Source: Trichosphaerium sp. ATCC 40318 (lineage: Eukaryota; Protista; Tubulinea). Taken from it: a DNA stretch of 64,000 bases. The stretch covers positions 62,001-126,000 of the forward strand of contig JALMLS010000330.1 in NCBI GenBank assembly GCA_038496445.1, read 5' to 3'. Positions within the stretch are counted from its first letter, which is position 1. Each line of letters opens with the position of its first letter. A program made the position numbers and the translations under genes. The notes beneath the pieces were generated by a model. It saw only the letters and a list, made by a program, of their open reading frames with translations. It did not search any database and was not told the origin of the DNA. Below are positions 6,397 through 63,609 of the stretch, in pieces.

Positions 6397-8200
6397 ATGA
6401 CTCTGGTTGGCGCTACAGTAGAACGAGCGATCATGTACTACTTGAAGAACCATTCGAAAGCTTACACTACAATTACGGCGGGAGATAAACATGCAACATT
6501 CATAAAACAAGTTGAGAACATAATAAGTGTATCAAATATGTCTCTCATACAACAGCTTGATGAAATTATTTTGAAGCAAGCAAACCACAGCAGCGAAGGA
6601 GTCAAACACACTCCTAAGTACATTGATTCGCCAAAAACAACGCGAAGAAAACAGTACGTAACGATTTTCTTTCAATAAACCAATTTCAGCTCTACATCTA
6701 ATGAATTGAGTTATCACGTGTTACAACACGTGTCATATGCCTTCCAAGCTTATTGCATGCTTTTAACTCCGAATTATCCGTTTGTTACTAACTGGCACCT
6801 CAGGACTTACACTGAAACACAAAGAACCAAATATCGTTGATTTTCCACCAGAGATCATTACAACTATTATAACCTTTACAAACAGCAAAGATAGATTTTC
6901 AATAGCTCAATCTTGTTGTATGATGTCTGACATCATTCATGATATCATTGGATATGATAAGGTTGGTCTATCAAACTTCAATGATATTTTAAAGGTTAAC
7001 AAGTATAAGGGTATCATGAACAACTCAGTGATTACTTTGAATGATATAAATATGAGAAGTGCAAGTTTTTATAGAATTTTATCTGGTTGTCGCCACATAA
7101 AAGCAAGGAAGTATGGTAGTATAACCGACTTGGATTTAGAAGCTCTTTGTGGTATTCATACAATTGATCTTTTAGATTGTAAATACATAACAGATAGAGG
7201 ACTTAAAGCACTCGCAGGTGTTCATACTATTGTACTAGCGGGATGTAATATAGGAGATGAAGGTGTTAAAGCACTCAAAGGCGTTCATACTATAAACCTA
7301 TCAAGAACTTCAGTAACAGATAAAGGCATCAATGCACTCAAAGGTGTTCATGAAATTAACCTTAATAATTGCAAAAAAATAAGAGGTTCAGGTATCAAAG
7401 CGCTGAGAGGTGTTCATACCATATACCTGTCTGATACTTCAATAACATCCAAAAGTATTAAACCATTAGCAGGTGTTCATACAATTGATCTTTCAATTTG
7501 TGGGAAAATAACAGATGTATCGATGCTTTCTGGTGTTCATTCTATAAACCTCAGGTACACTTCAGTATCAGATGACAGTATTAAACACCTTGCTGGAGTA
7601 CATACAATTTGTCTTAACTACACATCAGTCACAGATGAAGGTATAAAAGAGCTTGCTGGAGTTCATACAATTAGCCTAGCTAAAACTGAAGTAACAGATG
7701 AAGGGCTCAAAGCATTAAAAGGTGTCCATACAATTAAACTTTATAATTGTAAATACATAACAGATAGAGGACTTAAAGCACTCGGAGGTGTTCATACTAT
7801 TGTACTAGCGGGATGTAAGGTAGGAGATGAAGGTATTAAAGAGCTTGCTGGTGTTCACACCATTGACGTCAGGTATACTAACATAACAGATGACGGTATT
7901 ATGGCACTCAAAGGTGTACATACCATAAACCTATCGGCAGCTCCAGTAACAGATAAAGGCTTGAAAGCTCTCAAAGGTGTTCATGAAATTGACCTCCAAT
8001 ACTGTAAATACATAACAGATACAGGAATCAAAGAACTCAAGGGTGTTCATACCATTAATCTCTCTGGTACTGCTGTAACAGGTGAAGGTGTCAAATCATT
8101 AATAGGTGCTCATCAAATTCGTGCTAGCCGTAGTTCGACATCACACAAAATTGTTGCCGAAATGGCGAAACACAATTGCAAAGTACTTATCTGGAAATAA
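6397..8200 (+). CDS. F-box + leucine-rich repeat protein (GVHTIDL-type ~22-23 aa repeats) with extra N-terminal exon
   Basis: F-box-like IVDFPPEIITTIITF...SIAQSC followed by many TDEGIKALAGVHTIxLxxT repeats; upstream ORF 6397-6678 is homologous to 35344-35667; exact splice join unresolved. Confidence 0.8.
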
Positions 8201-8370: not shown

Positions 8371-10450
8371 TCATTCTTCTAAGGTACGTTCGTCAACAGT
8401 ATGAGCCAAAGCCCCTTGGTGAGCATCATGGCATGATTGAACACGACCAGAAGGGTCAAGGTTATCACACCATGCAGGAATCCAGTTCTTAACTGTCTTC
8501 TTGCACACATCCGTCTTGTACATTTTCTCGAACAAGTTACGGTAGAAGAATGCTTCCTTCGTCTTTGGTGGATCATGAGGGAACAAAGTCGCGCGGTTCT
8601 CCCATTGTTCTTCGGTGATGCTCTTCTCAGCCAACTCGATGAGTCCATCGATCCAGTTGTAGCCTACGCCATCGCTGAATTGTTCCTTTTGACGCCATAA
8701 GCAGTCTTTTGGGAGGTATGGGTCATCAGGGGTGTCGAAAGCCTTACGAAGTACGTCCTTCTCGATTACGCCATTGCCGCACATTTTAGCTTGTGGGTCA
8801 AAGCCGAAAGAAGTGTCTAAGAAGTCACGGTCGAGGAAAGGAACTAAGATAATAAAGTTAGAATTGAACGATTTTTTTTCGATTTTTTTTTGCAGAATTA
8901 GTCTTTTGTTAAAACACGTACCACGTGCTTCAAGACCCCATGCCATTGTTGACTTGTTAGCTCTCAAGCAATCACAAGTGTACAATTGTCCTACTCTGCG
9001 AACAGCTTCATCATGGAACTCTCTTGGGCTTGGAGCACCGTAGAAGTAAAGGTAACCTCCGTAGATCTCATCGGCACCTTCGCCTGAGAGAACCATTTTA
9101 CAGCCAGTTGCCTTGATCTTTCTTGACATCAAGTACATAGGTGTACTAGCACGGATGGTAGTAACATCATATGTTTCGAGATGCCAGATGACGTTCTCAA
9201 GAGCATCAAAACCATCCTGAAAAAAAATCAGAAACAAGAAAAAAATTGAATCGCAACGTCAAAAGAAAAGGTATCGTACCTGAACAGTAAAGGTGAATTC
9301 ATGATGAATAGAACCAATATGGTCAGCAACTTGCTTTGCAAAAGCAAGATCAGGAGAGTGTCCCTTGATACCAACAGAGAAGGTATGCAAGTTGTATCCC
9401 CACCATTGCTTGTCGTGATGGGCCTCTTTTTCTTTCAAGAGTCTGCTAGCAATTGAAGCTACCAAACTACTATCAAGACCTCCAGAAAGGAGTACACCAA
9501 AAGGAACCTCAGACATAAGTCTTCTGCGAACAGCAGTAGTAAGAGATTCTCTAATCTCAGCGTGTACTACTGGCTTCGTAGGGACCCATGTGGTGTCGAG
9601 GTATTGAGGTTTGTAGTAGCGATGGAATTCGCCTGTCTTGGACGAATAATAGTGACCAGGAGGGAAGCTCTAAAACACACAATGAGAAATGAATTTTGAA
9701 AAAAAAAAAAAAAAAAAAGACGTACGATTAACTCTTCAGTACAGTCATCCATGATTGTCTTCATCTCGCTGGTAATCCAGGTAGAACCATCCTTTCCTTT
9801 ACCCAAGTAAAGAGGTACTACACCGATAGGATCGCGAGCAGCAATGAAATGTTCACCATCGTATAAAACGAATCCGAAATCACCGCTTAACATGTCAATC
9901 ATTTTTTCCTTGTGCTCTTCCCAAAGGTACAAGAGTACTTCACAATCGGAACCAGTTTTTAACTCACGTTTGGTTTTAAGTCCCGCAAGTAGTTCGCGAT
10001 AGTTGTAAATCTCTCCGTTTACGAGAAGTACAGTTTTGCCATCTTCACTAGAAAGATAAAGTAAGTCTTAAGGTCGCAAGAATAAAAAAAAATAAAAGTT
10101 GGGAAAACCAAATGTACTCAGAACAGAGCGAGGATAACACGATAAGACGTACCTTATCAATGGCTGTTCGCCAGAGGCTACGCCCATAATGGCTAAGCGC
10201 TCATGCGCGAAGTAGTTGTTACCCACAACATGACTGCCTGTCCAATCAGGACCGCGATGTCTTAGTCTAAGGAATTGTTATTAGGTTGTTACGGAGTGAA
10301 GGGAAGAAAAATTGGGATGCGTTCACGCATTTTGAAAAATGACGAGATGTACCTTGCTGACAACTTCAATACGTATTGTCTGAAGCCGCGGGGGTCTTTA
10401 TCTTTAAATTTGCTTTCGTCTATGCCTAAAATTGCTAGGATGCCACACAT
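8371..10450 (-). CDS. ASNS: Asparagine synthetase (glutamine-hydrolysing), multi-exon
   Basis: Ntn N-terminus MCGILAIL; motifs [66 protein letters not shown]. Confidence 0.97.
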
Positions 10451-32685: not shown

Positions 32686-34959
32686 ATGATTGAAAACTAG
32701 TAATTCATTGCAAACATTTCTACTCATTCAAAGCACGAGATAATCGAAAGCGATCCCAATCATGAAATCAATCAGATGTGGCCAATTTTTGCAAGTTTAC
32801 AGCCACTAAAACACGATACAACGAGGATCTAGTCAAGCTTGGCATGTGGAAATCTTATTACGATGATGGAAAACTGAAGAGTAGTAAGACATAGAGAACT
32901 TTTTGCTAAGTAGTTGAAAACCAAAAAAAAATTCGTTGTGGTTCACAAATGTTCGCTAGCAACTTCATATTACGGCTACAATTAGACACAGTGCTGTTAA
33001 ATGTACTACAAATGTACTAGTAACCAAAAACTATCACATGGCTGTAAATTCGTAAAAAACTGAAAAACGTGCTTTTGTTGATAATTTTCATTCGAATGGT
33101 AAACAGTTTCTGAAAGCCAAAGTCACTTTTCAATGGCGTCTTACTATACACACAGTATCTTACATTGTGTCACGAAACTCCTGGGTTCAACTACAGATTA
33201 CAACATAAAATATGGCAGACCGCAACCGCCTGTTTCTAAGGCAACGGAAATACATTTCCCTATATCCAGAAAGGGTGGTACCAAAGTTTCAAAACAGGCC
33301 TTGCTGGTCTACCCAATCTTTACACGAAACAAAATAAAAACGTTTTTGGTAAGATACAAATACGCACCAAACTTTAGGACATGCGATTCTATGCGTAGAA
33401 AAGAACAATAAGAAGAACTTACCTCGTTTATTCCAATTAGTCGTATCCACAGTACTCAAATATGTATATTAAATCCACTACAACCTATTTAGTACTATAG
33501 TGACCTGCAAGAGTAAACAAGTGGTAGTGGTTCACGAAAAGTACGTTTTACAGTTTTTTAGCGCAAAAATGTGTCAACAAAGTTCTTGAATTAATTTCGC
33601 AGTTAGGTGCAATTATTGTACACTCTAATTTCGCTCAATGTGTTCTAAACGTATTATACATGCAGGCTATGCTTATCAACTACTTAGCAAAAAGTTCTCT
33701 AATAACGGAGAGTTACACGGGATTAGTAAGTCTTGGTATGAAAACACCAAGTTAAAATCACATATTCAGTATGTAAAAGGGAAAAGAGACGGGCAATTCA
33801 ACCATTGGTACGAAAATGGCCAACAGCACATACAATGCCATTTTGTAAACGATATAAAAAGAAGGCGAGAACAAACACTGGAGCTCTAACGGACAGCTGT
33901 TGCGTCTCTTTCACTACAAGAACAATAAAAGAGCGGGAGAGTACAAAGAGTGGCGAGAAAGCGGACAATTGGAAAAGATATTCCACTATGTGAAGGTTGG
34001 AATGTGCACGTGGTTTAATGAAAATGGCCAAATGCAAAGTTGTTGCCCCTACATCAATGGCAAGAAGGAAGGGACAAGAGTAGAATACTATAATAACGGT
34101 CAAGTAGAAGCACGTACAACCTACATCAATGGCGTAATGCACGGTGAGTTTAAGAATTGGTTTGAAAATGGTCAAGTGGTATCTCAAGGTAGTTATATCA
34201 ATGACAAACGCAACGGAGAGATTAAGCGGTGGTTTCAAAGTGGGCAATTGCGTGACACATGGAACTATGTAGAAGGCAAACTCGAAGGCGAGAGTAAAAG
34301 ATGGCACAATAACGGTCAACTAGCTGAACTTTCAAACTATGAGAATAATAAGCAGGAAGGAGTATATAAAAGGTGGTGCGCTAGTGGTAATTTAGGTATG
34401 TCGTAGTGAAGTCTTTTCCTCTAATAGTAAAGTAGAGCAGCATGGTCATTTCGCCAATGATAAGCCTCTATACACCATTATGTGGAATGACAAAGGCCAA
34501 CTGAAGAGGTACCGTAATTACCGTACTGGCGAGAGGAAGATATGGCATGATAACGGCCAATTGGCAATACAATTATTTATGATTAGCGGTAAGTTCGAAG
34601 GGAAGCACTTGTCATGGCACAAGAATGGTAAAATAAAGAGAATTACCACTTTTGTCAATGGCAAACAAGAAGGAGAGTTCACAATTTGGTATGAAAATGG
34701 CGAAAAGGAGGAACAAGGCCATCATATACGAAATGAGCTCAATGGTGAGATGAGGAGATGGTATGTAGATGGAAAATTGTATCAAGTTTATAACTACAGA
34801 GACGGTAAACTTGATGGAGAGTTCCAAGAATGGCAACAGAATGGTGTTTTGCGCAAAATTTGCAATTATGTCAACAACAAGTGTGAAAGAGAGGATCTAC
34901 GGCAAGAATCTAGCTCCTTTGAACCAGAAGTAATATGCAAGAACGATAAACAGATTTGA
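32686..34959 (+). pseudogene. F-box-like + MORN (YwqK/MORN_2-type) repeat gene, disrupted
   Basis: Many WYENGQ...GKxEG repeats at 33666-34959; frameshift in the A-run at ~33856-33860; degraded 5' part 32686-32883 (in-frame stops and a frameshift) aligns with the TRY...LxKxGxW linker of the paralogs at 50616 and 63609. Confidence 0.65.
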
Positions 34960-35343: not shown

Positions 35344-36900
35344 ATGGACTGCTTGGGCACTTCAATTGAGCAGGCACTCATATACTATTGTGAGAACCAC
35401 AAAGATGAATACAGTAGAATTACTGCAGAACAACGCAAACCATTCCTAAAACAGCTTGAAAGTATCTTAAACAATGCAAACAAGAGACTGATGTTACAAC
35501 TTGACCAATATCTACTCCAAAACACTTGTACGACTAAACAGCGAGCAGAAAAGGTTGCCAAGGATATACATTCACAACGTCATCGTGATACAAACACTGA
35601 AGAGCTAGCATTGCCTCAACATAAGCTAACAAGACAGTGCGCTATTCCTTATTGTTTATATCACTAACAGCTGCAAAAAAGTAGAACACAGACGACTATA
35701 CAACACTCCACCATTCTCGATTTCCCCCCAGAGGTTATTTCAACTATCCTACATCAGGTAGATGCAAAATCAAGATTTATTGTTGTGCAAACTTGTCATA
35801 TGATGGCTGATATTATTCATCATGTTGTTGGTTATGAAAAGATATTCATATATGACATTCCAGATATTCTAAAGGTTAGACAATACCAAGGTGTTATGAA
35901 CAACACAATCGTTGTTTTGAATGTTGAAAACAATACTTTATTCTCATTGCTGTCAGGGTGTAAAAACGTTTCTGCTGAGTTCACAAGAAGTTCTGTAGCA
36001 TTAATTGAGAAGAGTAGTGTTATAAATGACACTGACCTCAAAGCACTTGCAGGAGTTCATTACATTTATCTAAATCGTTGTAAGCATATTACAGATGAAG
36101 GTATACGAGCATTGAGCGGTGTACATACCATAGTTCTTTCTATGACGTCAGTCACAGATGAAGGTATTAAAGCACTTAAAGGTGTTCATAATATTTGCCT
36201 TTGTAGTTGTAAAAACGTGACGGATGAAGGCATCAAATCGCTTGCAGGAGTGCACACGATTGATGTAATGTTATGTCCAAATGTGACGGATGAAGGCATC
36301 AAATGCTTAGCTGGTGTTCACCACATTGATCTTTCACGTACCTCAGTGACAGATAGGGGTGTAAAGTTCCTAGCTGGAGTTCACACAATCTACCTTTCTC
36401 GTACTTCAGTAACTGATGAGGGAATCAAATCACTCAAAGGAGTACACTCCATCTATCTTCAAGATGTACCTGTTTCAGATGAGGGTGTTAAAGCACTTGC
36501 AGGCGTTCATACTATTCATCTTGGAGATACATCAGTGACAGATGAAGGTATAAAATCACTCAAAGGAGTTTATGCTATTGACCTTTCTCGCACATCAGTG
36601 ACTGATGAAGGTGTCAAAGCATTGAAAGGAGTTCATGCAATTAATCTTGATGGCACATCAGTTACAGACGAAGGCATAAAAGCTCTAATAGGAGTCCATA
36701 CTATTGGACTTCTAAATTGTGATCAAGTGACAAATGAAGGTATTAAAGTACTTGCAAGTGTACCAAGCCTGCATGCTATTGAAAAGCCTTGGAGCTATAA
36801 ACGTGACCCTGGACGCCCTAAGCATATTCAAATAGTTGTCTATCATCATTTGTTTATACAACGTGCTTTGAAACTGTATTATAAAGGTCTGCCCTGTTAG
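35344..36900 (+). CDS. F-box + LRR (GVHTIDL-type) protein with N-terminal helical domain
   Basis: ILDFPPEVISTILHQ F-box-like motif, VTDEGIKALxGVHxIxL repeats; first exon paralogous to 6397-6678. Confidence 0.82.
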
Positions 36901-41570: not shown

Positions 41571-42377
41571 CTAACAATAGTATGTAGCTCCTAACGCCTT
41601 CAAACATTCATCTGTTACATGTGTAAATGGTACATCAATAGTATGCACGCCTGCCAACGCCTTGATACCCTCATCTGTAATCAATAAACAAGCACCTAGC
41701 CTAATAGTGTATACACCTGCCAAAGCCTGTATACCTTCATCTGATACCTTTGTACTTGTTAAATCTATAGTATGTACACCTGCCAACTCTTTGATTCCCT
41801 CGTCTGTTATTGATTCACAACCACTTAACGAGATAGTGTGTACACCTGCCAATACCTTCAACCCCTTGTCTGTGACATTTGTAAATGATAAATCAATCTT
41901 GTATACACCTGCTAACGCCTTGATACCATCATCTGTAATCAATTCACAATTACTTAACCTAATGGTGTGTACACCTGCTAAAGCTTTGATTCCTTCATCA
42001 GTCACCATTGTAAATGATAAATCAATCTCATGTACACCTGCTAACGCCTTGACGCCATTGTCTGTTACCTTTGTAAATGGTAGCATAATAGTATGTACAC
42101 CTGCTAATGCTTTGATTCCTTCACAAGTAAAATCAAAATCAAAAGAAATAATTGTATTGTGGAGTAATGGGCTGCCAGAAAGGATCTTAATGCCATCTTC
42201 ACTAGTTATTTTAATATAATTGTATCCAATGTGGTCATGAACAATAGATCGCAAAAAGCGGCATGTTTGGGCTGATTGGAGAGTATAATTCCCTTGTTTG
42301 AGAATATGCACTATAACTTCAATTGGTAGCGCAATAAGGTCAAATATGTATTCGTTTGTATTTTCGTTTTGTTCCAT
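41571..42377 (-). CDS. F-box + LRR (GVHTIDL-type) protein, single exon
   Basis: LIALPIEVIVHILKQ...SAQTCRFL followed by TDEGIKALAGVHTI repeats. Confidence 0.85.
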   Translation of the reverse strand: MEQNENTNEYIFDLIALPIEVIVHILKQGNYTLQSAQTCRFLRSIVHDHIGYNYIKITSEDGIKILSGSPLLHNTIISFDFDFTCEGIKALAGVHTIMLPFTKVTDNGVKALAGVHEIDLSFTMVTDEGIKALAGVHTIRLSNCELITDDGIKALAGVYKIDLSFTNVTDKGLKVLAGVHTISLSGCESITDEGIKELAGVHTIDLTSTKVSDEGIQALAGVYTIRLGACLLITDEGIKALAGVHTIDVPFTHVTDECLKALGATYYC

Positions 42378-42778: not shown

Positions 42779-43170
42779 TTAGCAGCTTCCACAAGCAGCT
42801 TCGCTCCAGCAACACCATTTGTCACTTCTGATGCGAAAGCATAATGGAGATCCAGGGTAGCAGTATGCAGTTGAACCTATCGTATGTAAGTATTTAAGAA
42901 TTACCAACCTTTGATTTTTCACGTACATTGACCATTCTTTTCACGACCACGTTTACGCCATCCTGGAGGGCACCATCCATTTGTATCACATGTTTCACCA
43001 CACAACAGTGGTCCTTGCTATACAAACGAAAGTTAGAAAAGGAAATGTAAAAGGAGATGTTGACTTACTTCAGTTGCTCGTTTAGCTCTTTCACTGAGCT
43101 CATTAGATTGGACCGCCAAGGCGAAAGTTAAAGCCGCAAGTACAAAGACAATAAGAGTAGTAGTTTTCAT
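42779..43170 (-). CDS. Secreted 10-Cys prepropeptide, copy 1 (leader type A), 3 exons
   Basis: MKTTTLIVFVLAALTFALAVQSNELSERAKRATE|QGPLLCGETCDTNGWCPPGWRKRGREKNGQ|CSTAYCYPGSPLCFRIRSDKWCCWSEAACGSC*; canonical GT-AG introns in phases 0 and 1. Confidence 0.88.
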
Positions 43171-43520
43171 CGGGGGTTATGTTCAATTCGTGAGGTGTTG
43201 TTATGGTTTGAATTTTATGGCTGGAAGGTCAAGATGATTTAAGTCTCACTTCATGTGCAGTTATGGTAACTTCTTTATCTTATCGGAACTTTGCAATTTT
43301 TAGATCACCATACTTTTAGCCCCAAATAGAACAGCGGTAATGATAATAAGAAACCATAGAAAACAAGCATTGGATTTAGCGAAAAAGAAATGTGGTAAAC
43401 ACTTTATGATACTTTTGTTCAGTGAATATGAAGACTTAAATCGATGTCTAAGTACATTCAAACAAAACCAAATTACAAAACCTCAACCAACAACAAAGCT
43501 CATCTTCTAACAAACAACAA

Positions 43521-43930
43521 ATGAACACAACAATATTATTTGTATTGGTGACTTTGGCATTGATACCAATTGCCTTGACGACCCAATCTAAAGACTCTGA
43601 AGAAATGCCAGACATGCATGAAAAGAGATCAACTGAGGTATGTCGACACTTGGTACTTTTACATTGTATTGTTAATTAACACCTCATCTAGCAAGGACCA
43701 CTGTTGTGTGGCGAAACATGTGATACAAATGGATGGTGCCCTCCTGGATGGCGTAAACGTGGTCGTGAAAAGAATGGTCAATGTATGTGAAAAATCAAAG
43801 GTTGGTAATTCTTAAATACTTACATACGATAGGTTCAACTGCATACTGCTACCCTGGATCTCCATTGTGCTTTCGCATCAGAAGTGATAAATGGTGTTGC
43901 TGGAGCGAAGCTGCTTGTGGAAGCTGCTAA
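43521..43930 (+). CDS. Secreted 10-Cys prepropeptide, copy 2 (leader type B), 3 exons
   Basis: Exons 43521-43637, 43692-43782, 43833-43930: MNTTILFVLVTLALIPIALTTQSKDSEEMPDMHEKRSTE followed by the same 62-aa peptide. Confidence 0.88.
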
Positions 43931-44664
43931 GATCCTGCACTCCAATATGAATGTAAAACTAAATAAAGTACCCAAGTTTTACTATTATTCGTTTTCATAG
44001 TTAGGCTGCATTGTCAGCTCCAAGTTCAACAAGAAACACATGTTGTGAGTCAATTGAATACACAGTGTATGTGGCAACGTGTGTGCCTGTAAAAACCAAT
44101 GAGCATAGGCACTACATTATTTTAGCAGAAACTGGTTTATTAAACGTGAAACACACTTGTTCAATCGCTAAAATAATGTTCAACGTAGCGCTAAAATATA
44201 GCAATGCAGACTTGCATTCACTTTTCAAGCAAGTGATACCGCATACAGGCAGGGCATGGCATCCAAATGTTACAGTTACTACAACATATGGTGTTAGAGC
44301 GAATGGTATAGCCATGTTTAATTAGCAAAACAGCACTAAACCAGGATAGAACCAAAGGCAATGTAAACCTTTTTGACTTTGTCCTTATGCCATTGAGTAC
44401 AATCAAATTAGCTCAGTGAGTGAACTATGAGCATAAGAAGTAACTCAACTATTTTTTGCTGGCAAGTATTGAGCCGACCCATTTTTTTGTAGTGATTGCT
44501 GGAGAATGTAATAGTTCATTGGCCGAAGAATTGTGACTGAAATTTATGTTTCATTTTGATACAACGAGCAGTTTAGTTAGTAAACTGTAGTCTGATTCTA
44601 CTTGTTGGCACTTTTATTGATTTCTTACAATGATATATGGCACAACAAGTATGGCTTTGCAATC

Positions 44665-45072
44665 TTAGCAACTTCCACAAGCAGCTTCACTCCAGCAACA
44701 CCATTTGTCACTTCTGATGCGAAAGCATAATGGAGATCCAGGGTAGCAGTATGCAGTTGAACCTAATAAAGGTAAGTATTAAAGAATTACCATCCTTGAT
44801 TTTCACGTACATTGACCATTCTTTTCTCGACCACGTTTACGCCATCCAGGAGGACACCATCCATTTGTATCACATGTTTCACCACACAACAGTGGTCCTT
44901 GCTAAATTGCATGTTAATTAACAATACAATGTAAAAGTACCAAGTGTCGACATACCTCAGTTGATCTCTTTTCATGCATGTCTGGCATTTCTTCAGAGTC
45001 TTTAGATTGGGTCGTCAAGGCAATTGGTATCAATGCCAAAGTCACCAATACAAATAATATTGTTGTGTTCAT
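44665..45072 (-). CDS. Secreted 10-Cys prepropeptide, copy 3 (leader type B), 3 exons
   Basis: Leader exon identical to copy 2; same 62-aa peptide with only synonymous changes. Confidence 0.88.
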
Positions 45073-45423
45073 TTGTTGTTTGTTAGAAGATGAGCTTTGT
45101 TGTTGGTTGAGGTTTTGTAATTTGGTTTTGTTTGAATGTACTTAGACATCGATTTAAGTCTTCATATTCACTGAACAAAAGTATCATAAAATGTTTACCA
45201 CATTTCTTTTTCGCTAAATCCAACGCTTGTAATCCATGATTGTTAGTCATCAATATACTGACACAAATAATGCTATTCTATCTGGGTTTTGCAAAGTAGA
45301 CTTACGATATTGTGAAACAAATATAATTTACCGTAACATTTCACGTGAATGGAGACTTAAACCATAATGACCTTCAAGTCATAAATACAAACCATAACAA
45401 GAACAACTACACCTTATAGAACA

Positions 45424-45817
45424 ATGCAAACAACAACACTTTTCGCTTTTGTACTCATGGCATTGACTGTTGCCTTGGCGGTCCAATCTAATGAGCTCAG
45501 TGAAAGAGCTAAACGAGCAACTGAAGTAAGTAAAGATCTCATTACTTTTCCATCGCATTCTAATATCGATTTAGCAAGGACCACTGTTGTGTGGTGAAAC
45601 ATGTGATACAAATGGATGGTGTCCTCCAGGATGGCGTAAACGAGGTCGAGAAAAGAACGGTCAATGTACGTGAAGATCAAAAGAAGGGTAACAGACTTCT
45701 TTGTACTTACCTTTATTAGGTTCAACTGCATACTGCTACCCTGGATCTCCATTATGCTTTCGCATAAGAAGTGACAAATGGTGTTGCTGGAGCGAAGCTG
45801 CATGTGGAAGCTGTTAG
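45424..45817 (+). CDS. Secreted 10-Cys prepropeptide, copy 4 (leader type A), 3 exons
   Basis: Exons 45424-45525, 45575-45665, 45720-45817: MQTTTLFAFVLMALTVALAVQSNELSERAKRATE followed by the same 62-aa peptide. Confidence 0.88.
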
Positions 45818-48084: not shown

Positions 48085-50347
48085 TTAGTATGATCCACGA
48101 CGTCTCATTGCTGCCAGCCTTTCCCTCTCTTTTCTCCTTCTCTCCTCTTCTTCAAGGTACTTCTTTCGTTCATCCAACACTTTTTCGAATTCTCGTATGA
48201 GTAGAATACTGTTCCATGTCCTACACACTTGTCTTGCTCTTCCAATTGTTTTAGAATTGAAATTAGCAAATACAAGAACTACTGCGTCTACTGGCATAAA
48301 AAGAGGTGAAGCAAAGTCTGGCATGCCAAGTTTTGGCCAGAATTTAGCCCAACTGTTTGCAAAATTTGTACTTGGTTGATAGCCAGGAATAACGTTATCA
48401 GTAGGTGCTATCTTATCAAGTATAAAGAGGCGGTAGTGAGAGAATATCATTTCTCTGAACTCTGCATACATTTCTCCAACTTGAATGGCATAATGATCTC
48501 TTACTGGTTGTACAATAATTGAATGAATATTGTCAAGCCTAAAAACAATTACATATCGGAACACATTGATCAATTTTCTTTGTTCAATACACTCCAAATA
48601 AATGAATGCCCGAGCAGTGCAACAATGAAAAAACAAAAAGAAAAACAAGGATTAAGTTTTTCAGTTGCAACAAAGCAATAATAATCACAGTTGTCGTACG
48701 CTTTTCTGGCTTGTGCCTTACTAGAACCAAATTGTGGTGTCTTCGTTTTTTTAATAATGTTAGCTAACCTTCTATCGTCTTCTTCGATAATAGCCTTTAA
48801 AAGATTGGAAAAAGGACCTGACCACATTCCTGTTTGTTTCTGAAAAAAAGAGGTCAGATTTTACCGTTTTTTCAAATGACCAATTATTCGCTGCTACATA
48901 CCTTCCATCTTGAGCATACGAGGTATAATGGGTGGGCTTTATTTGAAGGCATCATTATTATTGCCCATATCCGTTCGAAGGCTTCCTTTTTCATGTCGGG
49001 AACAGAAATCTTATTTTCTTTGATTTCTTGTTGAATATCCATTGGAATATGTGCTATTTTGTCAAGTTTATCATCGACACCGAGAAACTCTCTAAAAGGC
49101 CTTGTGTCTTTTGCAAATGCTGCTTCAAGGTAGGTTTTGTGTTTATCGAATTGAGCTTTGAGTGCGTTGTATATAGCATTGAATTCCGCCAAGTGAATTT
49201 CGTTTTTTATTTTCTTCTTGAACGAGCTAACTTGTTTCATACGCATCAATTGCCAGACATATAGTGGGTATATCTGCATAGCTAACTCGTGTCCATCAAG
49301 CCAAGACTCTCTTATATACTTTAAGCGTAACCCAGTATCAACAACGCGAACAACGTATCCTTAATAAAAAAGTTAAAATGAGAAGATTTCTAAAGTGCTT
49401 GCCTTCGGATCCTGTAGCTCGCCTGAGTTTTATTTTATCGTTCAATTTCTTCAAGCTTTGTACTTTTATAGGTTTGATAGATTTAACGCCAAGAGTATTT
49501 GCAATATCAATAACATCAGGTAAAGTGAGTTCGTATCCTTTATCGTCATAAACAGCCAAAAGAATCGGTTCTTGATGCAAAATGTTAAGTTAGCTTTTTT
49601 TCGTTTTAAGTACTGGTATTAACATGACGTACCCTCGAAGTCATATTCAACAACTACAGTGTTTTCTTTATAAATGATTTCAAAGATATATGTCCAAGAC
49701 TCTTTCATTTTCTCAAGTGCACCATGTTCCGTCAACCAAGCCTAAAATTGTTTGTTGTCAACAATTATTTTTGTTACATTTTTCTTTTAGTTTTACGTAC
49801 AGCAGCCCATTTAGCCTGTGAGGAGTTCATGCGAGATTTCGTTGTGACACAAATCTTCCCTTTCCAAATGAAAGCAACGCCCATTGAGCCTAAAATAACG
49901 TTGACGGTAAGCACTTGATACCCTTTTTTCGTTTTTTGTATTAGTTCAATGATTTGGTCTTACCATCATATTTTTCTGTTACTTCTATTTTAGCGTCTTT
50001 AGCCATCGCAGATGTGAGGTTTTCTTCGATTTCGTTGTACCTAAAGAATTTTGGGAAGCCATGAGCTATCACTTTCCCTTCTTTGTGGTCTATGGTACGT
50101 AAGTTATTTGTTGCATGTATAATTAGGCTAAATATAAGTACATACCTACAACAAGACCTCTGCAGAGGCAACCAACTTGAAAGTCATTTGATGGTGTTAT
50201 TGAGTCAAAAGCGTAGCGATATACAGATAAACCGCAGCCATCGTCGTACTTTACAATCTTTTTTTGCTCTAGTCCCTGTTTTAAAGCCTTTTCTAGATCC
50301 TCCCAAGGCATAGCACGCACAGGATGCTGCTTTAGATCCTTTGCCAT
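48085..50347 (-). CDS. T4 Rnl1-like RNA ligase fused to C-terminal F-box-like motif(s)
   Basis: CRGLVV, HGFPKFF, motif I TEKYDGS (spliced), TYIFEII, SEGYVV, RLK; C-terminal LFMPVDAVVLVFANFNSKTIGRARQVCRTWNSIL. Confidence 0.82.
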
Positions 50348-50615
50348 TTTAGTACAACCAATCTGGTTTTGAGTTGACTTTTGGCATTTTAGCCGAAATT
50401 CGAGTGAACTTTGCAAAACGTTTTATCTTGTTCTTACCAGTGTCACGTGGCTTTTGTTATTGCGTCTTTTACGAAGGCCATGTGGTAGTCCACAAGCCAA
50501 ACACTAAAGAATGTGTAGTGTTCAATGAACGTCAAACGGTTGAAAACGTGAAACATGGTTTTTGGCGATATAACGTATTAAAGAACGTCGTGCTTGATAT
50601 TAATGCTTGTTGGCA

Positions 50616-51737
50616 ATGTCTAAAGACAATTGGCGGGTAGTTCACTTTAAATGGTATAAGAATGCCAAAGACATCACCGAAGTGCGTCTGTGCGGCTCTT
50701 GGGATAACTGGAAAGTAAATCAGCTGATAATGACAAAAGTTGTAAAATATTCAAAATCTGGTGATCTAGTCTCTTGTGTGTTTGGAGCAGGTTTAAACTT
50801 AGCACATGGCACGTACGAATACAAATTTGTTGTAGATGGCGTATGGCAGCATGATGACACCGCACCCACGCGGGTCGACGCCTCAGGTAACATAAACAAC
50901 GTAATAACGATCCTAAAAGACTTTCAACATAAATATTATTTAAACAATCCTAAAACAACTCAAAATGATCCTTGTCGCACTTGTACAGATACAATAGGAA
51001 CAATGGACGTAGTTATAAACTATTTAAAAGACGAGAATAAGTATGCCATTGAAGGCGCGATACCGCCTCTATTAAACCTACCACTTGAACTACAACATAT
51101 GATTATAGACACTTCCAAAGAAGTTTATGTCAAATGGCCTGTACTGTGCTATGGTACAGCAGTAACTTCTCGATTCAATAATAAACTTGAACGACATGGC
51201 ACATGGAAAACAAGCGCACATGTTTGGTTTTATGAAGATGGAAAGGCGTGCAGAAAACATCAAATTTTCAAAAATGGAGTTATTTTTTCATCATGCGATT
51301 ATAACCTTGGTATGAGACATGGCGCTTATCGAAGATGGTACAAGTATACTCCTAAAATACTAGTATCTAATTGTTGCTATAGGTATGATAATGGGCAGCC
51401 TTGGCAGCAGTTGGAGTATAAAAATGGTAAAAAACATGGAAAGTCACAACATTGGTACAAAAATGGACAAATGATGAAATTGAGGTTTTACAATAACGGT
51501 AAAATCATTGATAATACTTTATATTGGTATACTACTGGTGTGCTTAAAAGCTCAAGATGGTATATGAACGGGAAACAGCATGGAGAGGAGAAAAAGTGGT
51601 ACACTAATGGATCTCTTGCTTTTTTAGCTTTGTATCATCATGGAACGGTTACTGCTACTCCACAGTGTTGGACACGTGCTGGAAGACCTACAGCACGAGT
51701 TTTCCTTGTACGTAGGCGTATAAGGAGGAGAAGATGA
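50616..51737 (+). CDS. CBM48 (AMPK-beta-type glycogen-binding) + F-box-like + MORN repeat protein
   Basis: EVRLCGSWDNW...GTYEYKFVVDGVWQHD...GNINNVI; LLNLPLELQHMII; WYxNG/GKKHG repeats; probable 45-nt in-frame intron at ~51338-51382. Confidence 0.85.
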   Translation: MSKDNWRVVHFKWYKNAKDITEVRLCGSWDNWKVNQLIMTKVVKYSKSGDLVSCVFGAGLNLAHGTYEYKFVVDGVWQHDDTAPTRVDASGNINNVITILKDFQHKYYLNNPKTTQNDPCRTCTDTIGTMDVVINYLKDENKYAIEGAIPPLLNLPLELQHMIIDTSKEVYVKWPVLCYGTAVTSRFNNKLERHGTWKTSAHVWFYEDGKACRKHQIFKNGVIFSSCDYNLGMRHGAYRRWYKYTPKILVSNCCYRYDNGQPWQQLEYKNGKKHGKSQHWYKNGQMMKLRFYNNGKIIDNTLYWYTTGVLKSSRWYMNGKQHGEEKKWYTNGSLAFLALYHHGTVTATPQCWTRAGRPTARVFLVRRRIRRRR

Positions 51738-58599: not shown

Positions 58600-58689
58600 G
58601 GTGCTTTTGGTATTACTCTAATAGCTCCGTGGATTTGGGAGAATCGTAGTACTTGTGAACAATGAACATTCAGCTCAAACCATTAAACC

Positions 58690-59934
58690 ATGAAGCAGCT
58701 CTTCTCCGTCTTTGTAATTCTGTTTGTTTCCTTCTTTACGACTTTCTCAAGCTACACCACACGCGATACAGAAGTACTTGAATGCTCTCGTGTTCCTTTC
58801 CCTTATAATCCTTCCGGAGTTAAACATATAGCCGCATCACCAAATGGCACGTGGGCTATAGCAAACGACAATACAATACACTTGTTAAAAGACGATGGAA
58901 CTTGGATGATTGTTTACGGAGGCCTGCAAAACATTAATGTGTCGCCTTTTGGAAATGACATATATGTTATTGGCATCAACAAATTCAGTCATATCTGGCA
59001 AAGACATGGTGTTACGGTACGCTACATTTTTATTTGTGACTATTGTTTGTTTTCTCACTTTCTTCTCTTAGCCACAACTACCTCAGGGTTCGTCTTGGTC
59101 GAAAATTGAAGGAGGACTTCGTTCATTATCTCTGAGGAACGATGGCAAATTTTGGGGTGTAAATCCATCCGATATTGTGTATTTTCATGATGGTACTCGC
59201 TGGATTCAGGTATGTCTTTGTAGAAACTGTTCTTACTTACTTGAACCTAGCACCCCGAACGTAACATGCTTGAGGTTACTGTAGATAAAAGCAATGAAGT
59301 TTATGGCCTTACAAGGAATGGAGACTTATATCGTCGTCAGGATTACGTTGGAAGTTGGGATCTTGTTAAATCACAGCTAGAAGCTCGAGGTATACGAATT
59401 TGTAACGATGTTATTTGGGGTGTAGGAAATACCGGAGCTCTTTCTAGAATTAACACAAGCCAAGACCCTCAGCACATAACATCGTTTTCATTTACAACGA
59501 AAGGTGTAAGCGGAGCACCAAGCACTGTTATTTCTCAGGTCAGCTGTAACCAAGCAGAAGAATTTCCTTGGTTCGTTTCTGGAGGCGTAATTTATAATCA
59601 ATGTACAGTAGTACCACAACCAACGGTATCGCCAACGCTACCACCGACAACTACAGCACCAACACCTTCGCCTACAACAACTCCGACAGCAAGTAGCCCA
59701 ATATCGTTGCCAGTAGTCAAACCGGTGACACCAAAGAATCCACCTTCATATAAAGCAGTGAAGCCAGTGCATCCACAAATTCCTCCTTCATACAAAGCAG
59801 TGAAACCAGTACACCCAATACTTCCACCTTCGTATAAAGCAGTGAAGCCAGTGCATCCTCAAATTCCTCCTTCATACAAAGCAGTGAAACCAGTGCACCC
59901 GCCACCATCAAAACTGGTTTACCCAAGGCCATAA
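58690..59934 (+). CDS. Secreted tectonin-like beta-propeller lectin with Pro/Thr linker and C-terminal PPSYK repeats
   Basis: Signal peptide; blades such as KHIAASPNGTWAIANDNTIH, WMIVYGGLQNINVS, WSKIEGGLRSLS..GKFWGVN; tail of PPSYKAVKPVHP repeats. Confidence 0.75.
59740..59907 (+). repeat. Coding tandem repeat, 42 bp x4 (PPSYKAVKPVHPxx)
   Basis: Four directly visible units ccWccttcRtaYaaagcagtgaaRccagtRcaYcc... Confidence 0.9.
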
Positions 59935-62926: not shown

Positions 62927-63609
62927 TCAAAGTTTCCTATCGTTGATATAAATTCCCTCATCGAGTAATGTACCATCACTGCTCCATTCCTTGTAAACAC
63001 CCTCTCGCTTATCGTTGATATAATGGCACTGCTCCTTCATATTGCCGTTTTGATGCCAAGACCTGTGTTCTCCTTCTATTTTATCTTTGAGATAATAATA
63101 CTTCTCAAACAACACACCGTGTTGGTACCAGTACCTAGCTTCGCCCTCTTTCTTACCATTGACATAAAAGAAATGCTTCCATATTTGATCCGTGTTGTAA
63201 TACCATTGCTTGAACTCTCCTTCTCGCTTACCCCTTACATAGTGACAGTGCTCAAGCAAATAGCCGTTTTTATTCCACTGTTTTCGCTCTCCTTCAAGCT
63301 TACCTTTTGAATAATAGCTCTTCAGCCAAAGAACACCATTTTTGTGATAACTCTTTCGCTCTCCATCAAGTTTACCATCAATAGACATTGCTGCTGAAGT
63401 TTACCAAACTTGTGTTTAACCCATTTTCCTCGTTTGTCAAGCTTAGAATCATATCTTGTGTTGGTTGCTGCGTATTTAGATACAAGTGGTAGTTTTAATT
63501 GCGCTTCAAAGTCCAAATCAATTAATTCAAAGAGAAGCTCAACTGGAAGGTGTAGAAGAAGACAGTCATCTACTGTTACGGTATCACTCTGTTTTTCATC
63601 CTTGTTCAT
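62927..63609 (-). pseudogene. F-box-like + MORN repeat gene with a single frameshift (~63385)
   Basis: LLLHLPVELLFELID F-box-like ORF 63322-63609 overlaps the MORN ORF 62927-63388 in a different frame; no intron of plausible length restores the frame. Confidence 0.65.

Follow-up and report, generated by a model that had tools for sequence, protein, structure and literature searches.

How a protist comes to carry four genes for one small, cysteine-rich peptide, and what such a peptide would do, are questions raised by positions 42779 to 45817 of a 64-kb stretch of Trichosphaerium sp. ATCC 40318 (contig JALMLS010000330.1, positions 62,001 to 126,000, forward strand; hereafter the window). The four genes of the window (g1 to g4), whose models were built from the sequence, each consist of three exons and two introns, and the cluster is one of real, spliced and strongly conserved genes. 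The cysteine framework of their product matched no family tested, and the product would thus represent a new peptide family of familiar prepro design.

Gene structure and splicing

The eight introns, 48-54 nucleotides (nt) long, all have GT-AG ends. The leader lies wholly within exon 1 and ends in KR followed by three residues; exons 2 and 3 encode a 62-residue core. As claimed in an earlier reading of the DNA without database searches (the sequence-only reading), this core is identical in all four genes, with Cys at positions 6, 10, 16, 31, 36, 43, 52, 53, 59 and 62 (spacing 3, 5, 14, 4, 6, 8, 0, 5, 2). A degenerate exon-2 pattern had exactly four matches in the 64 kb, namely the four genes, versus none expected from 100 shuffles, and no fifth copy was found by tblastn within the window. 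Two public runs (X1 and X2), present as contigs only and neither recorded as RNA, share a small part of the stretch. Most of their contigs are 90-99% similar to the window, which marks them as related strains, from at most two studies. The features of the cluster are as follows:

43170-42779, minus strand: g1, gene model with a type-A leader
43069..43170, minus strand: g1 exon 1 of 34 codons, a type-A leader made up of signal peptide, pro-region, KR and a spacer of three residues; hydrophobic 11-mer with a Kyte-Doolittle mean of 2.98; covered by X1 and X2 contigs
42927..43017, minus strand: g1 exon 2, core residues 1-30 and the first base of Cys31 (gene model)
42779..42876, minus strand: g1 exon 3, remainder of Cys31, residues 32-62 and TAA (gene model)
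43171..43520, no strand: upstream region shared by g1 and g2, 351 nt from ATG to ATG, putative bidirectional promoter; g2 5' end near 43470
43521-43930, plus strand: g2, gene model with a type-B leader
43521..43637, plus strand: g2 exon 1, type-B leader with acidic pro-region, 39 codons, same as g3 exon 1 (gene model, copy comparison)
43638..43691, plus strand: g2 intron 1, 54 nt, phase 0, GT..AG; skipped in X1 and X2 contigs
43692..43782, plus strand: g2 exon 2 (gene model, run contigs)
43783..43832, plus strand: g2 intron 2, 50 nt, phase 1, interrupting the Cys31 codon; g1 intron 2 is 98% identical to it; skipped by run contigs
43833..43930, plus strand: g2 exon 3, TAA, with an AATAAA-like signal about 32 nt downstream (gene model, run contigs)
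43931..44664, no strand: unique spacer between the convergent g2 and g3, containing the symmetry centre (about 44297; inverted-repeat arms)
45072-44665, minus strand: g3, gene model with a type-B leader
44665..44762, minus strand: g3 exon 3, TAA (gene model)
44811..44901, minus strand: g3 exon 2 (gene model)
44956..45072, minus strand: g3 exon 1, type-B leader (gene model, copy comparison)
45073..45423, no strand: upstream region shared by g3 and g4, 352 nt from ATG to ATG; g3 side 90% identical to the g2 upstream region (flank comparison)
45424-45817, plus strand: g4, gene model with a type-A leader
45424..45525, plus strand: g4 exon 1, type-A leader; it agrees with g1 at 87 of 102 nt, and the five amino-acid substitutions between them all fall in the signal peptide (copy comparison)
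45575..45665, plus strand: g4 exon 2 (gene model)
45720..45817, plus strand: g4 exon 3, TAG (gene model)

When g2 alone was used for alignment, 36 contigs of X1 and 16 of X2 were placed. Intron 1 was skipped at GT..AG in both runs, with shorter sides of 44 and 49 nt, as was intron 2 (two contigs in X1 and three in X2), with a shorter side of only 22 nt. The contigs were restricted to the exons and a 5' untranslated stretch; the uncovered parts, that is the spacer and the upstream regions, carry no weight as evidence. Both leader types were present in X1 and in X2. Moreover, one X1 contig starts at 43470 after 19 non-genomic nt, presumably a cDNA template-switch adapter; this g2 5' end lies 51 nt before the ATG, with no ATG between. 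Since the contigs skip both introns and cover exons only, they support transcription and splicing of these genes in close relatives, and carry no information on expression level. The three-exon models of the sequence-only reading are thereby borne out, with spliced joints at both introns in the two runs. Apparent skips of about 1,935 nt in an alignment to the whole locus were rejected: the halves of spliced contigs had been placed on different copies, and the alignment to g2 alone resolved them to the two introns.

Duplication, selection and likely gene conversion

Along the locus, the leaders follow the order A, B, B, A, in two divergent gene pairs that make up a 3-kb quasi-palindrome. The inverted-repeat arm pairs (four of the four checked) share a centre at 44296.5-44298, and from this common centre the locus is read as an A/B pair duplicated in inverted orientation around a 734-nt spacer. 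The spacer also holds a 106-codon stop-free frame (44005-44322, plus strand) with no Pfam family, which is probably not a gene. The two leader types reported earlier are diverged homologues, with 44% amino-acid identity.

Nucleotide identity among the copies was 54-100% for the leaders and 93-98% for the core exons, with 100% identity of the core protein. Indeed, 13 of the 186 core sites varied among the four copies, each of them by a synonymous change at a third codon position, with pairwise differences of 4-12 of 189 nt (stop codon included). A ratio of 13 synonymous to 0 non-synonymous changes, against 38 synonymous and 148 non-synonymous sites (Fisher p = 1.6e-10), agrees with the earlier claims that every core change is silent and that the core is under purifying selection.

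The other parts of the genes formed a mosaic. Between g2 and g3, identity was 90% over 200 nt upstream, 100% in exon 1 (117 of 117 nt), 91% in intron 1 and 76% in intron 2; between g1 and g2, it was 98% in intron 2 but 54% in exon 1 and in intron 1. The statement that leaders and introns diverge thus applies to pairs such as g1 and g2 in exon 1, but not to the g2/g3 leader or to intron 2 of g1 and g2. This mosaic is at odds with a simple duplication tree, so gene conversion (or inversion) between the repeats is likely. The copies would be close because of gene conversion, and every surviving difference would be silent because of selection; their sameness points to both processes together, and not to selection alone as first proposed, when gene conversion was missed.

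Whether the cluster could instead be an artefactual duplication in the assembly, or consist of dead copies, was also considered. No run was found to cover at least half of the stretch, so there is no DNA run of the strain across the locus, which leaves this explanation some room. However, the copies differ at 4-12 of 189 sites and their 3' flanks are unrelated (30-41% identity only), as befits the real amplification claimed earlier; dead copies would sit poorly with purely synonymous changes and with spliced forms of both leader types in two of two runs. This explanation is largely refuted and highly improbable.

A second form of the peptide

Differences from the window were listed in the runs at 13 core codons, 10 of them synonymous and 3 non-synonymous (T12E, N28R and D49S), and a loose end in X2 showed a last loop one residue longer, followed by a TGA stop. 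None of the listed changes removes a Cys. Where both forms were covered, the second one accounted for a minority of the depth (T12E in 41 of 166 in X1 and 12 of 127 in X2). The similar depths suggest that the changes belong to one further paralogue; no single contig carries all of them together. The gene of the second form is not in the 64-kb window (runs compared over 43690-43920). Since the second form occurs in both runs, the family is strongly conserved, not invariant: the word 'invariant' holds for the four copies here but not for the family, in which the second form departs from the core by three or more substitutions and one inserted residue.

Precursor and core properties

The layout of signal peptide, pro-region, KR and Cys-rich core, as put forward previously, was present in all four genes. 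A hydrophobic stretch of the signal-peptide type was found within the first 20 residues of the three distinct leaders (best 11-residue Kyte-Doolittle mean of 2.78-3.32), and KR closes the pro-region in the four genes as well as in loose ends of X1 and X2. The pro-region, previously described as acidic, is so in g2 and g3 (six D/E and three K/R), but is charge-neutral in g1 and g4 (three D/E and three K/R from residue 22 on). The core has a mass of 6.9 kDa, a net charge of +3 and an isoelectric point (pI) of 8.4, with 62 residues, or 65 with the spacer after KR. It contains 4 Trp, 6 aromatic W/Y, 5 Pro, 8 Gly, no His and 16% Cys, and five of its eight K/R sit in residues 21-27. Models of the two core halves (31 residues each) showed a short hairpin and no helix, with low confidence (predicted local distance difference test, pLDDT, of 62 and 74; predicted template modelling score, pTM, under 0.3).

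Its 16% Cys, 8 Gly and 5 Pro, together with the gene dose and the strict conservation, would suit a structural secreted unit of a cyst wall, cell coat, adhesive or extrusome matrix, Cys-cross-linked after removal of the pro-peptide. Structural proteins are usually longer and repetitive, whereas the core is one short unit that lacks repeats and bears a basic patch; we consider such a role distinctly unlikely.

A cut after KR would leave (S/A)-T-E ahead of Gln, the first residue of exon 2. Because of these three residues, formation of pyroglutamate, suggested earlier for an N-terminal Gln, would need a further trimming step and would not be automatic. A cut at the internal KR would yield pieces with three and seven Cys; if every Cys is paired, the two would have to be joined by an interchain bond. 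However, a dibasic site arises in 46% of core shuffles, so internal cleavage, and with it a two-chain product, is only a possibility, for which the internal KR by itself would be no evidence. A bolder and doubtful version of this idea is a new five-disulfide fold in which a kexin-type protease nicks the internal KR, leaving a chain with 3 Cys and one with 7 Cys joined by an interchain disulfide. A free-living protist would then possess a two-chain effector resembling insulin or a killer toxin; the two leaders would route the core to the food vacuole and to the outside, and conversion within the palindrome would keep the copies alike.

Searches for relatives

To search for relatives of the peptide, exon-sized halves of the core were used as queries, which lowers sensitivity. 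Pfam, among the targets proposed with the sequence-only reading, gave no family for either half, and the Protein Data Bank (PDB) provided no credible match. In PDB sequences, exon 3 had no match at E up to 10, and the 12 rows obtained with exon 2 (E 0.67-1.2) were rejected. A set of 5.8 billion proteins yielded no candidate (query, a 40-residue stretch with exon 3; proteins of 22-70 and 71-2000 residues). Among 1.84 billion representatives, the exon 3 query had three matches, all of them long tandem-repeat proteins (one RCC1-like and two others), which were rejected.

Scans of contigs left few candidates: 1 of 64 passed in metagenomes (exon 3), 3 of 29 in prokaryote genomes (exon 2), and 2 of 17 and 1 of 18 in viral contigs. 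All seven were rejected: each is short and lacks the Cys frame, and most lie off-frame or antisense relative to a longer open reading frame (ORF). A loose Cys pattern found 59 loci in viral contigs, none of which extended past the pattern. The best Atlas scores (0.84 and 0.85) were at chance level, with knottin-like family rows at 0.81 or less. For the half-models, Foldseek gave no match and VIA-align, over 48,161 chains, none that reached Z 2; given the low confidence of these models, this says nothing on the novelty of the fold. A text search of the open-access literature, not made by sequence, found no title or abstract opening that describes the peptide.

The core was also compared with the Cys patterns of cysteine-stabilised (CS)-alpha-beta defensins, knottins (inhibitor cystine knot, ICK), WAP, hevein and three-finger proteins, which resemble it in general design (secreted, disulfide-rich, under 70 residues); none of the five matched. 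From CS-alpha-beta defensins, the core has CxxxC and GxC but lacks CxC. Exon 3 carries a C-C-CC-C-C array like that of knottins, with loops of 6, 8, 0, 5 and 2, whereas the knottin pattern wants a last loop of 4 or more. The eight-Cys spacing with CC of WAP does not fit the core, for whose halves Pfam had no family, and the CCSxxGxCG motif of hevein is missing.

These comparisons bear on the idea of a binding mini-protein, either an inhibitor of proteases or a lectin-like peptide binding glycans, which would protect the cell or opsonise prey without killing. Six aromatic W/Y in 62 residues are consistent with such a role, and a fixed enzyme or glycan target would explain the constancy of the core. 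Its C-terminal part is loosely like a WAP tail (CC, short loop, CG, Cys), a pattern chosen post hoc and matched by 1.65% of shuffles. The full WAP and hevein patterns are absent, and the lack of a Pfam family for both halves also argues against this idea, which we regard as unlikely.

Two kinds of described peptide come close in precursor layout. MgCRP-I of Mytilus has a signal peptide, a pro-region of about 15 residues ending in KR, a basic mature part (pI 8-9.5) and a clustered gene family, and the arrangement of signal, short pro-region, KR and Cys-rich core is reported there to be that of MgCRP-I and of many antimicrobial peptides and toxins (PMC4558851). The locus shares with it this prepro layout and, in exon 3, a C-C-CC-C-C array, but has 10 Cys versus 6 and does not fit the MgCRP-I consensus C(X3-6)C(X1-7)CC(X3-4)C(X3-5)C. 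With the five other patterns also failing, the Cys spacing remains as unrecognised as it was at first sight. Fungal antifungal proteins (AFP) are alike in having a precursor of about 94 residues with leader and prosequence, a small cationic Cys-rich mature protein and a GXC(X3-9)C motif (PMC6170789); they have 8 Cys and nine Lys, in contrast to 10 Cys and a net charge of +3 here, and the core had no Pfam or PDB match and a motif at chance level.

Proposed function

Acanthaporin is a peptide of about 60 residues with ten Cys. Amoebae are described as makers of Cys-stabilised antibacterial peptides, namely amoebapores and acanthaporin (PMC5198042, PMC6723116), which resemble the core as small Cys-stabilised peptides of a unicellular eukaryote. 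They differ from it as His-switched pore formers; His is absent from the core, which contains 5 Pro and 8 Gly, and neither half matches a PDB sequence. Neither half-model shows a helix, which at their low confidence (pLDDT 62 and 74) says little on the helical fold of an amoebapore-type peptide.

Our best reading, plausible but tentative, is that of a secreted peptide, processed by a kexin-type protease and locked by disulfides, whose microbial target is fixed. An antimicrobial role was ranked first because of the gene dose, the basic, Trp-flanked loop, the acidic pro-region in one leader type and the amoeba precedent. The signal peptide would take the precursor into the secretory route, a kexin-type protease would free the core at KR, and five disulfides would lock a small beta-type fold. 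The basic, Trp-flanked loop of 14 residues between Cys16 and Cys31 could then meet an anionic microbial surface, in the food vacuole or outside the cell, for use against prey or competing microbes. The near-constant core would indicate a fixed molecular target rather than an arms race. As to history, a divergent A/B pair would have been duplicated in inverted orientation, giving more dose; gene conversion between the arms would swap cores and introns, and selection would remove amino-acid changes.

Several points weigh against this reading. The charge of the core is modest and the core is hydrophilic (grand average of hydropathy, GRAVY, -0.65). A GXC(X3-9)C gamma-core motif (as defined in PMC6170789) is present at residues 29-36, across the exon 2/3 joint, but is at chance level, occurring in 58% of 10,000 shuffles. 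With no His in the core, the acanthaporin His switch is inapplicable. The splicing evidence comes from contigs of related strains, in runs not recorded as RNA, rather than from this genome, and the phagotrophic way of life of the host is taken as an assumption. Synthetic MgCRP-I peptides are reported to have had no antimicrobial or toxic activity (PMC4558851), a precedent that may serve as a warning against inferring function from layout. Finally, the pre-pro part of MgCRP-I is described as conserved and its mature region as hypervariable (PMC4558851), the reverse of this locus, in which the mature part is constant and the leader variable. Known toxin and antimicrobial prepro families and Euplotes pheromones alike tend to keep the leader and vary the mature part (PMC4558851, PMC9542385), and the reversed pattern here may fit a hormone-like ligand at least as well.

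Such a ligand is the subject of the main rival, a secreted self-signal (pheromone, autocrine growth, aggregation or encystment cue) binding an own-species receptor. A constant core with drifting leaders and a modest core charge are consistent with it, and the second form, a few residues different and present in the same runs, would suit receptor-specific variants. Small disulfide-rich pre-pro pheromones exist in ciliates: those of Euplotes are reported to be helical, with a variable mature part and a conserved pre-pro part, and Er-23 has 10 Cys in 51 residues (PMC9542385). The likeness to Euplotes lies in a protist pre-pro precursor and a small disulfide-rich mature peptide. However, Euplotes pheromones, as described in that source, are helical bundles that form an allelic series at one locus, in contrast to the standard code, four-gene palindrome and constant core found here, and the half-models, with low confidence, show no helix. 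There is, moreover, no receptor in evidence, and a four-fold gene dose would probably be above the need of most signals. We therefore consider a self-signal somewhat unlikely, and retain the antimicrobial peptide as the tentative first choice.

Genomic neighbourhood

The window has the standard code, 37% GC and introns of about 50 nt. Neighbouring genes, as identified by Pfam (one scan covering 77 of 186 ORFs), encode PARP, RasGAP, aspartyl protease, tectonin, F-box-LRR and MORN_2 proteins. Together these features point to a eukaryotic host, probably a protist. In this otherwise intron-rich genome, three long single-ORF leucine-rich-repeat genes (6767-8200, plus strand; 35668-36900, plus strand; 41571-42377, minus strand) have a common 'AGVH' repeat, and the two that were scanned contain F-box and LRR_6. 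Leucine-rich repeats of the 'AGVH' type recall giant-virus genes. For the gene adjoining the cluster, no close relative was found in viral contigs (none of six candidates).

Long ORFs with MORN-variant repeats were observed at 33858-34959 (plus strand), 50604-51737 (plus strand) and 62927-63400 (minus strand), and MORN_2 was confirmed for the first two; at 50604-51737, these repeats are fused to an AMPK-type glycogen-binding domain. A tectonin-domain protein of the secreted type, with an extensin-like, Pro-rich C-terminal tandem repeat, is encoded at 58687-59934 (plus strand), and an exon at 49944-50183 (minus strand) weakly resembles T4 RNA ligase 1, at an E of 1.7e-4 that falls short of the family cut-off. 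An asparagine synthetase (8371-10067, minus strand) had best matches of 52-58% identity, including fungi, amoebozoans and holozoans, and formed a long unsupported branch in a quick tree (74 of 121 rows; unnamed rows past the first 55 hits were dropped). The host would thus appear to be without a close relative in the protein collection.

Significance

Few disulfide-rich secreted peptides appear to have been described from protists, namely, in the literature consulted, amoebapores, naegleriapores, acanthaporin and Euplotes pheromones. What this locus adds is another Cys framework; its genes show evidence of splicing in both runs, are under strong purifying selection and have a natural variant. 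The cluster also exemplifies a class of genes that are abundant but, with their short exons, escape protein databases: the exon 3 query found no protein among 5.8 billion. If the two-chain effector proved true, it would be the first of a class of protist peptides, serving as weapons or hormones, that has no kinship with amoebapores or ciliate pheromones. With a size of 62-65 residues, the peptide can be synthesised directly and assayed, which would allow a test of whether protists that feed on bacteria rely on defensin-like weapons or on peptide hormones, and might possibly provide a new scaffold.

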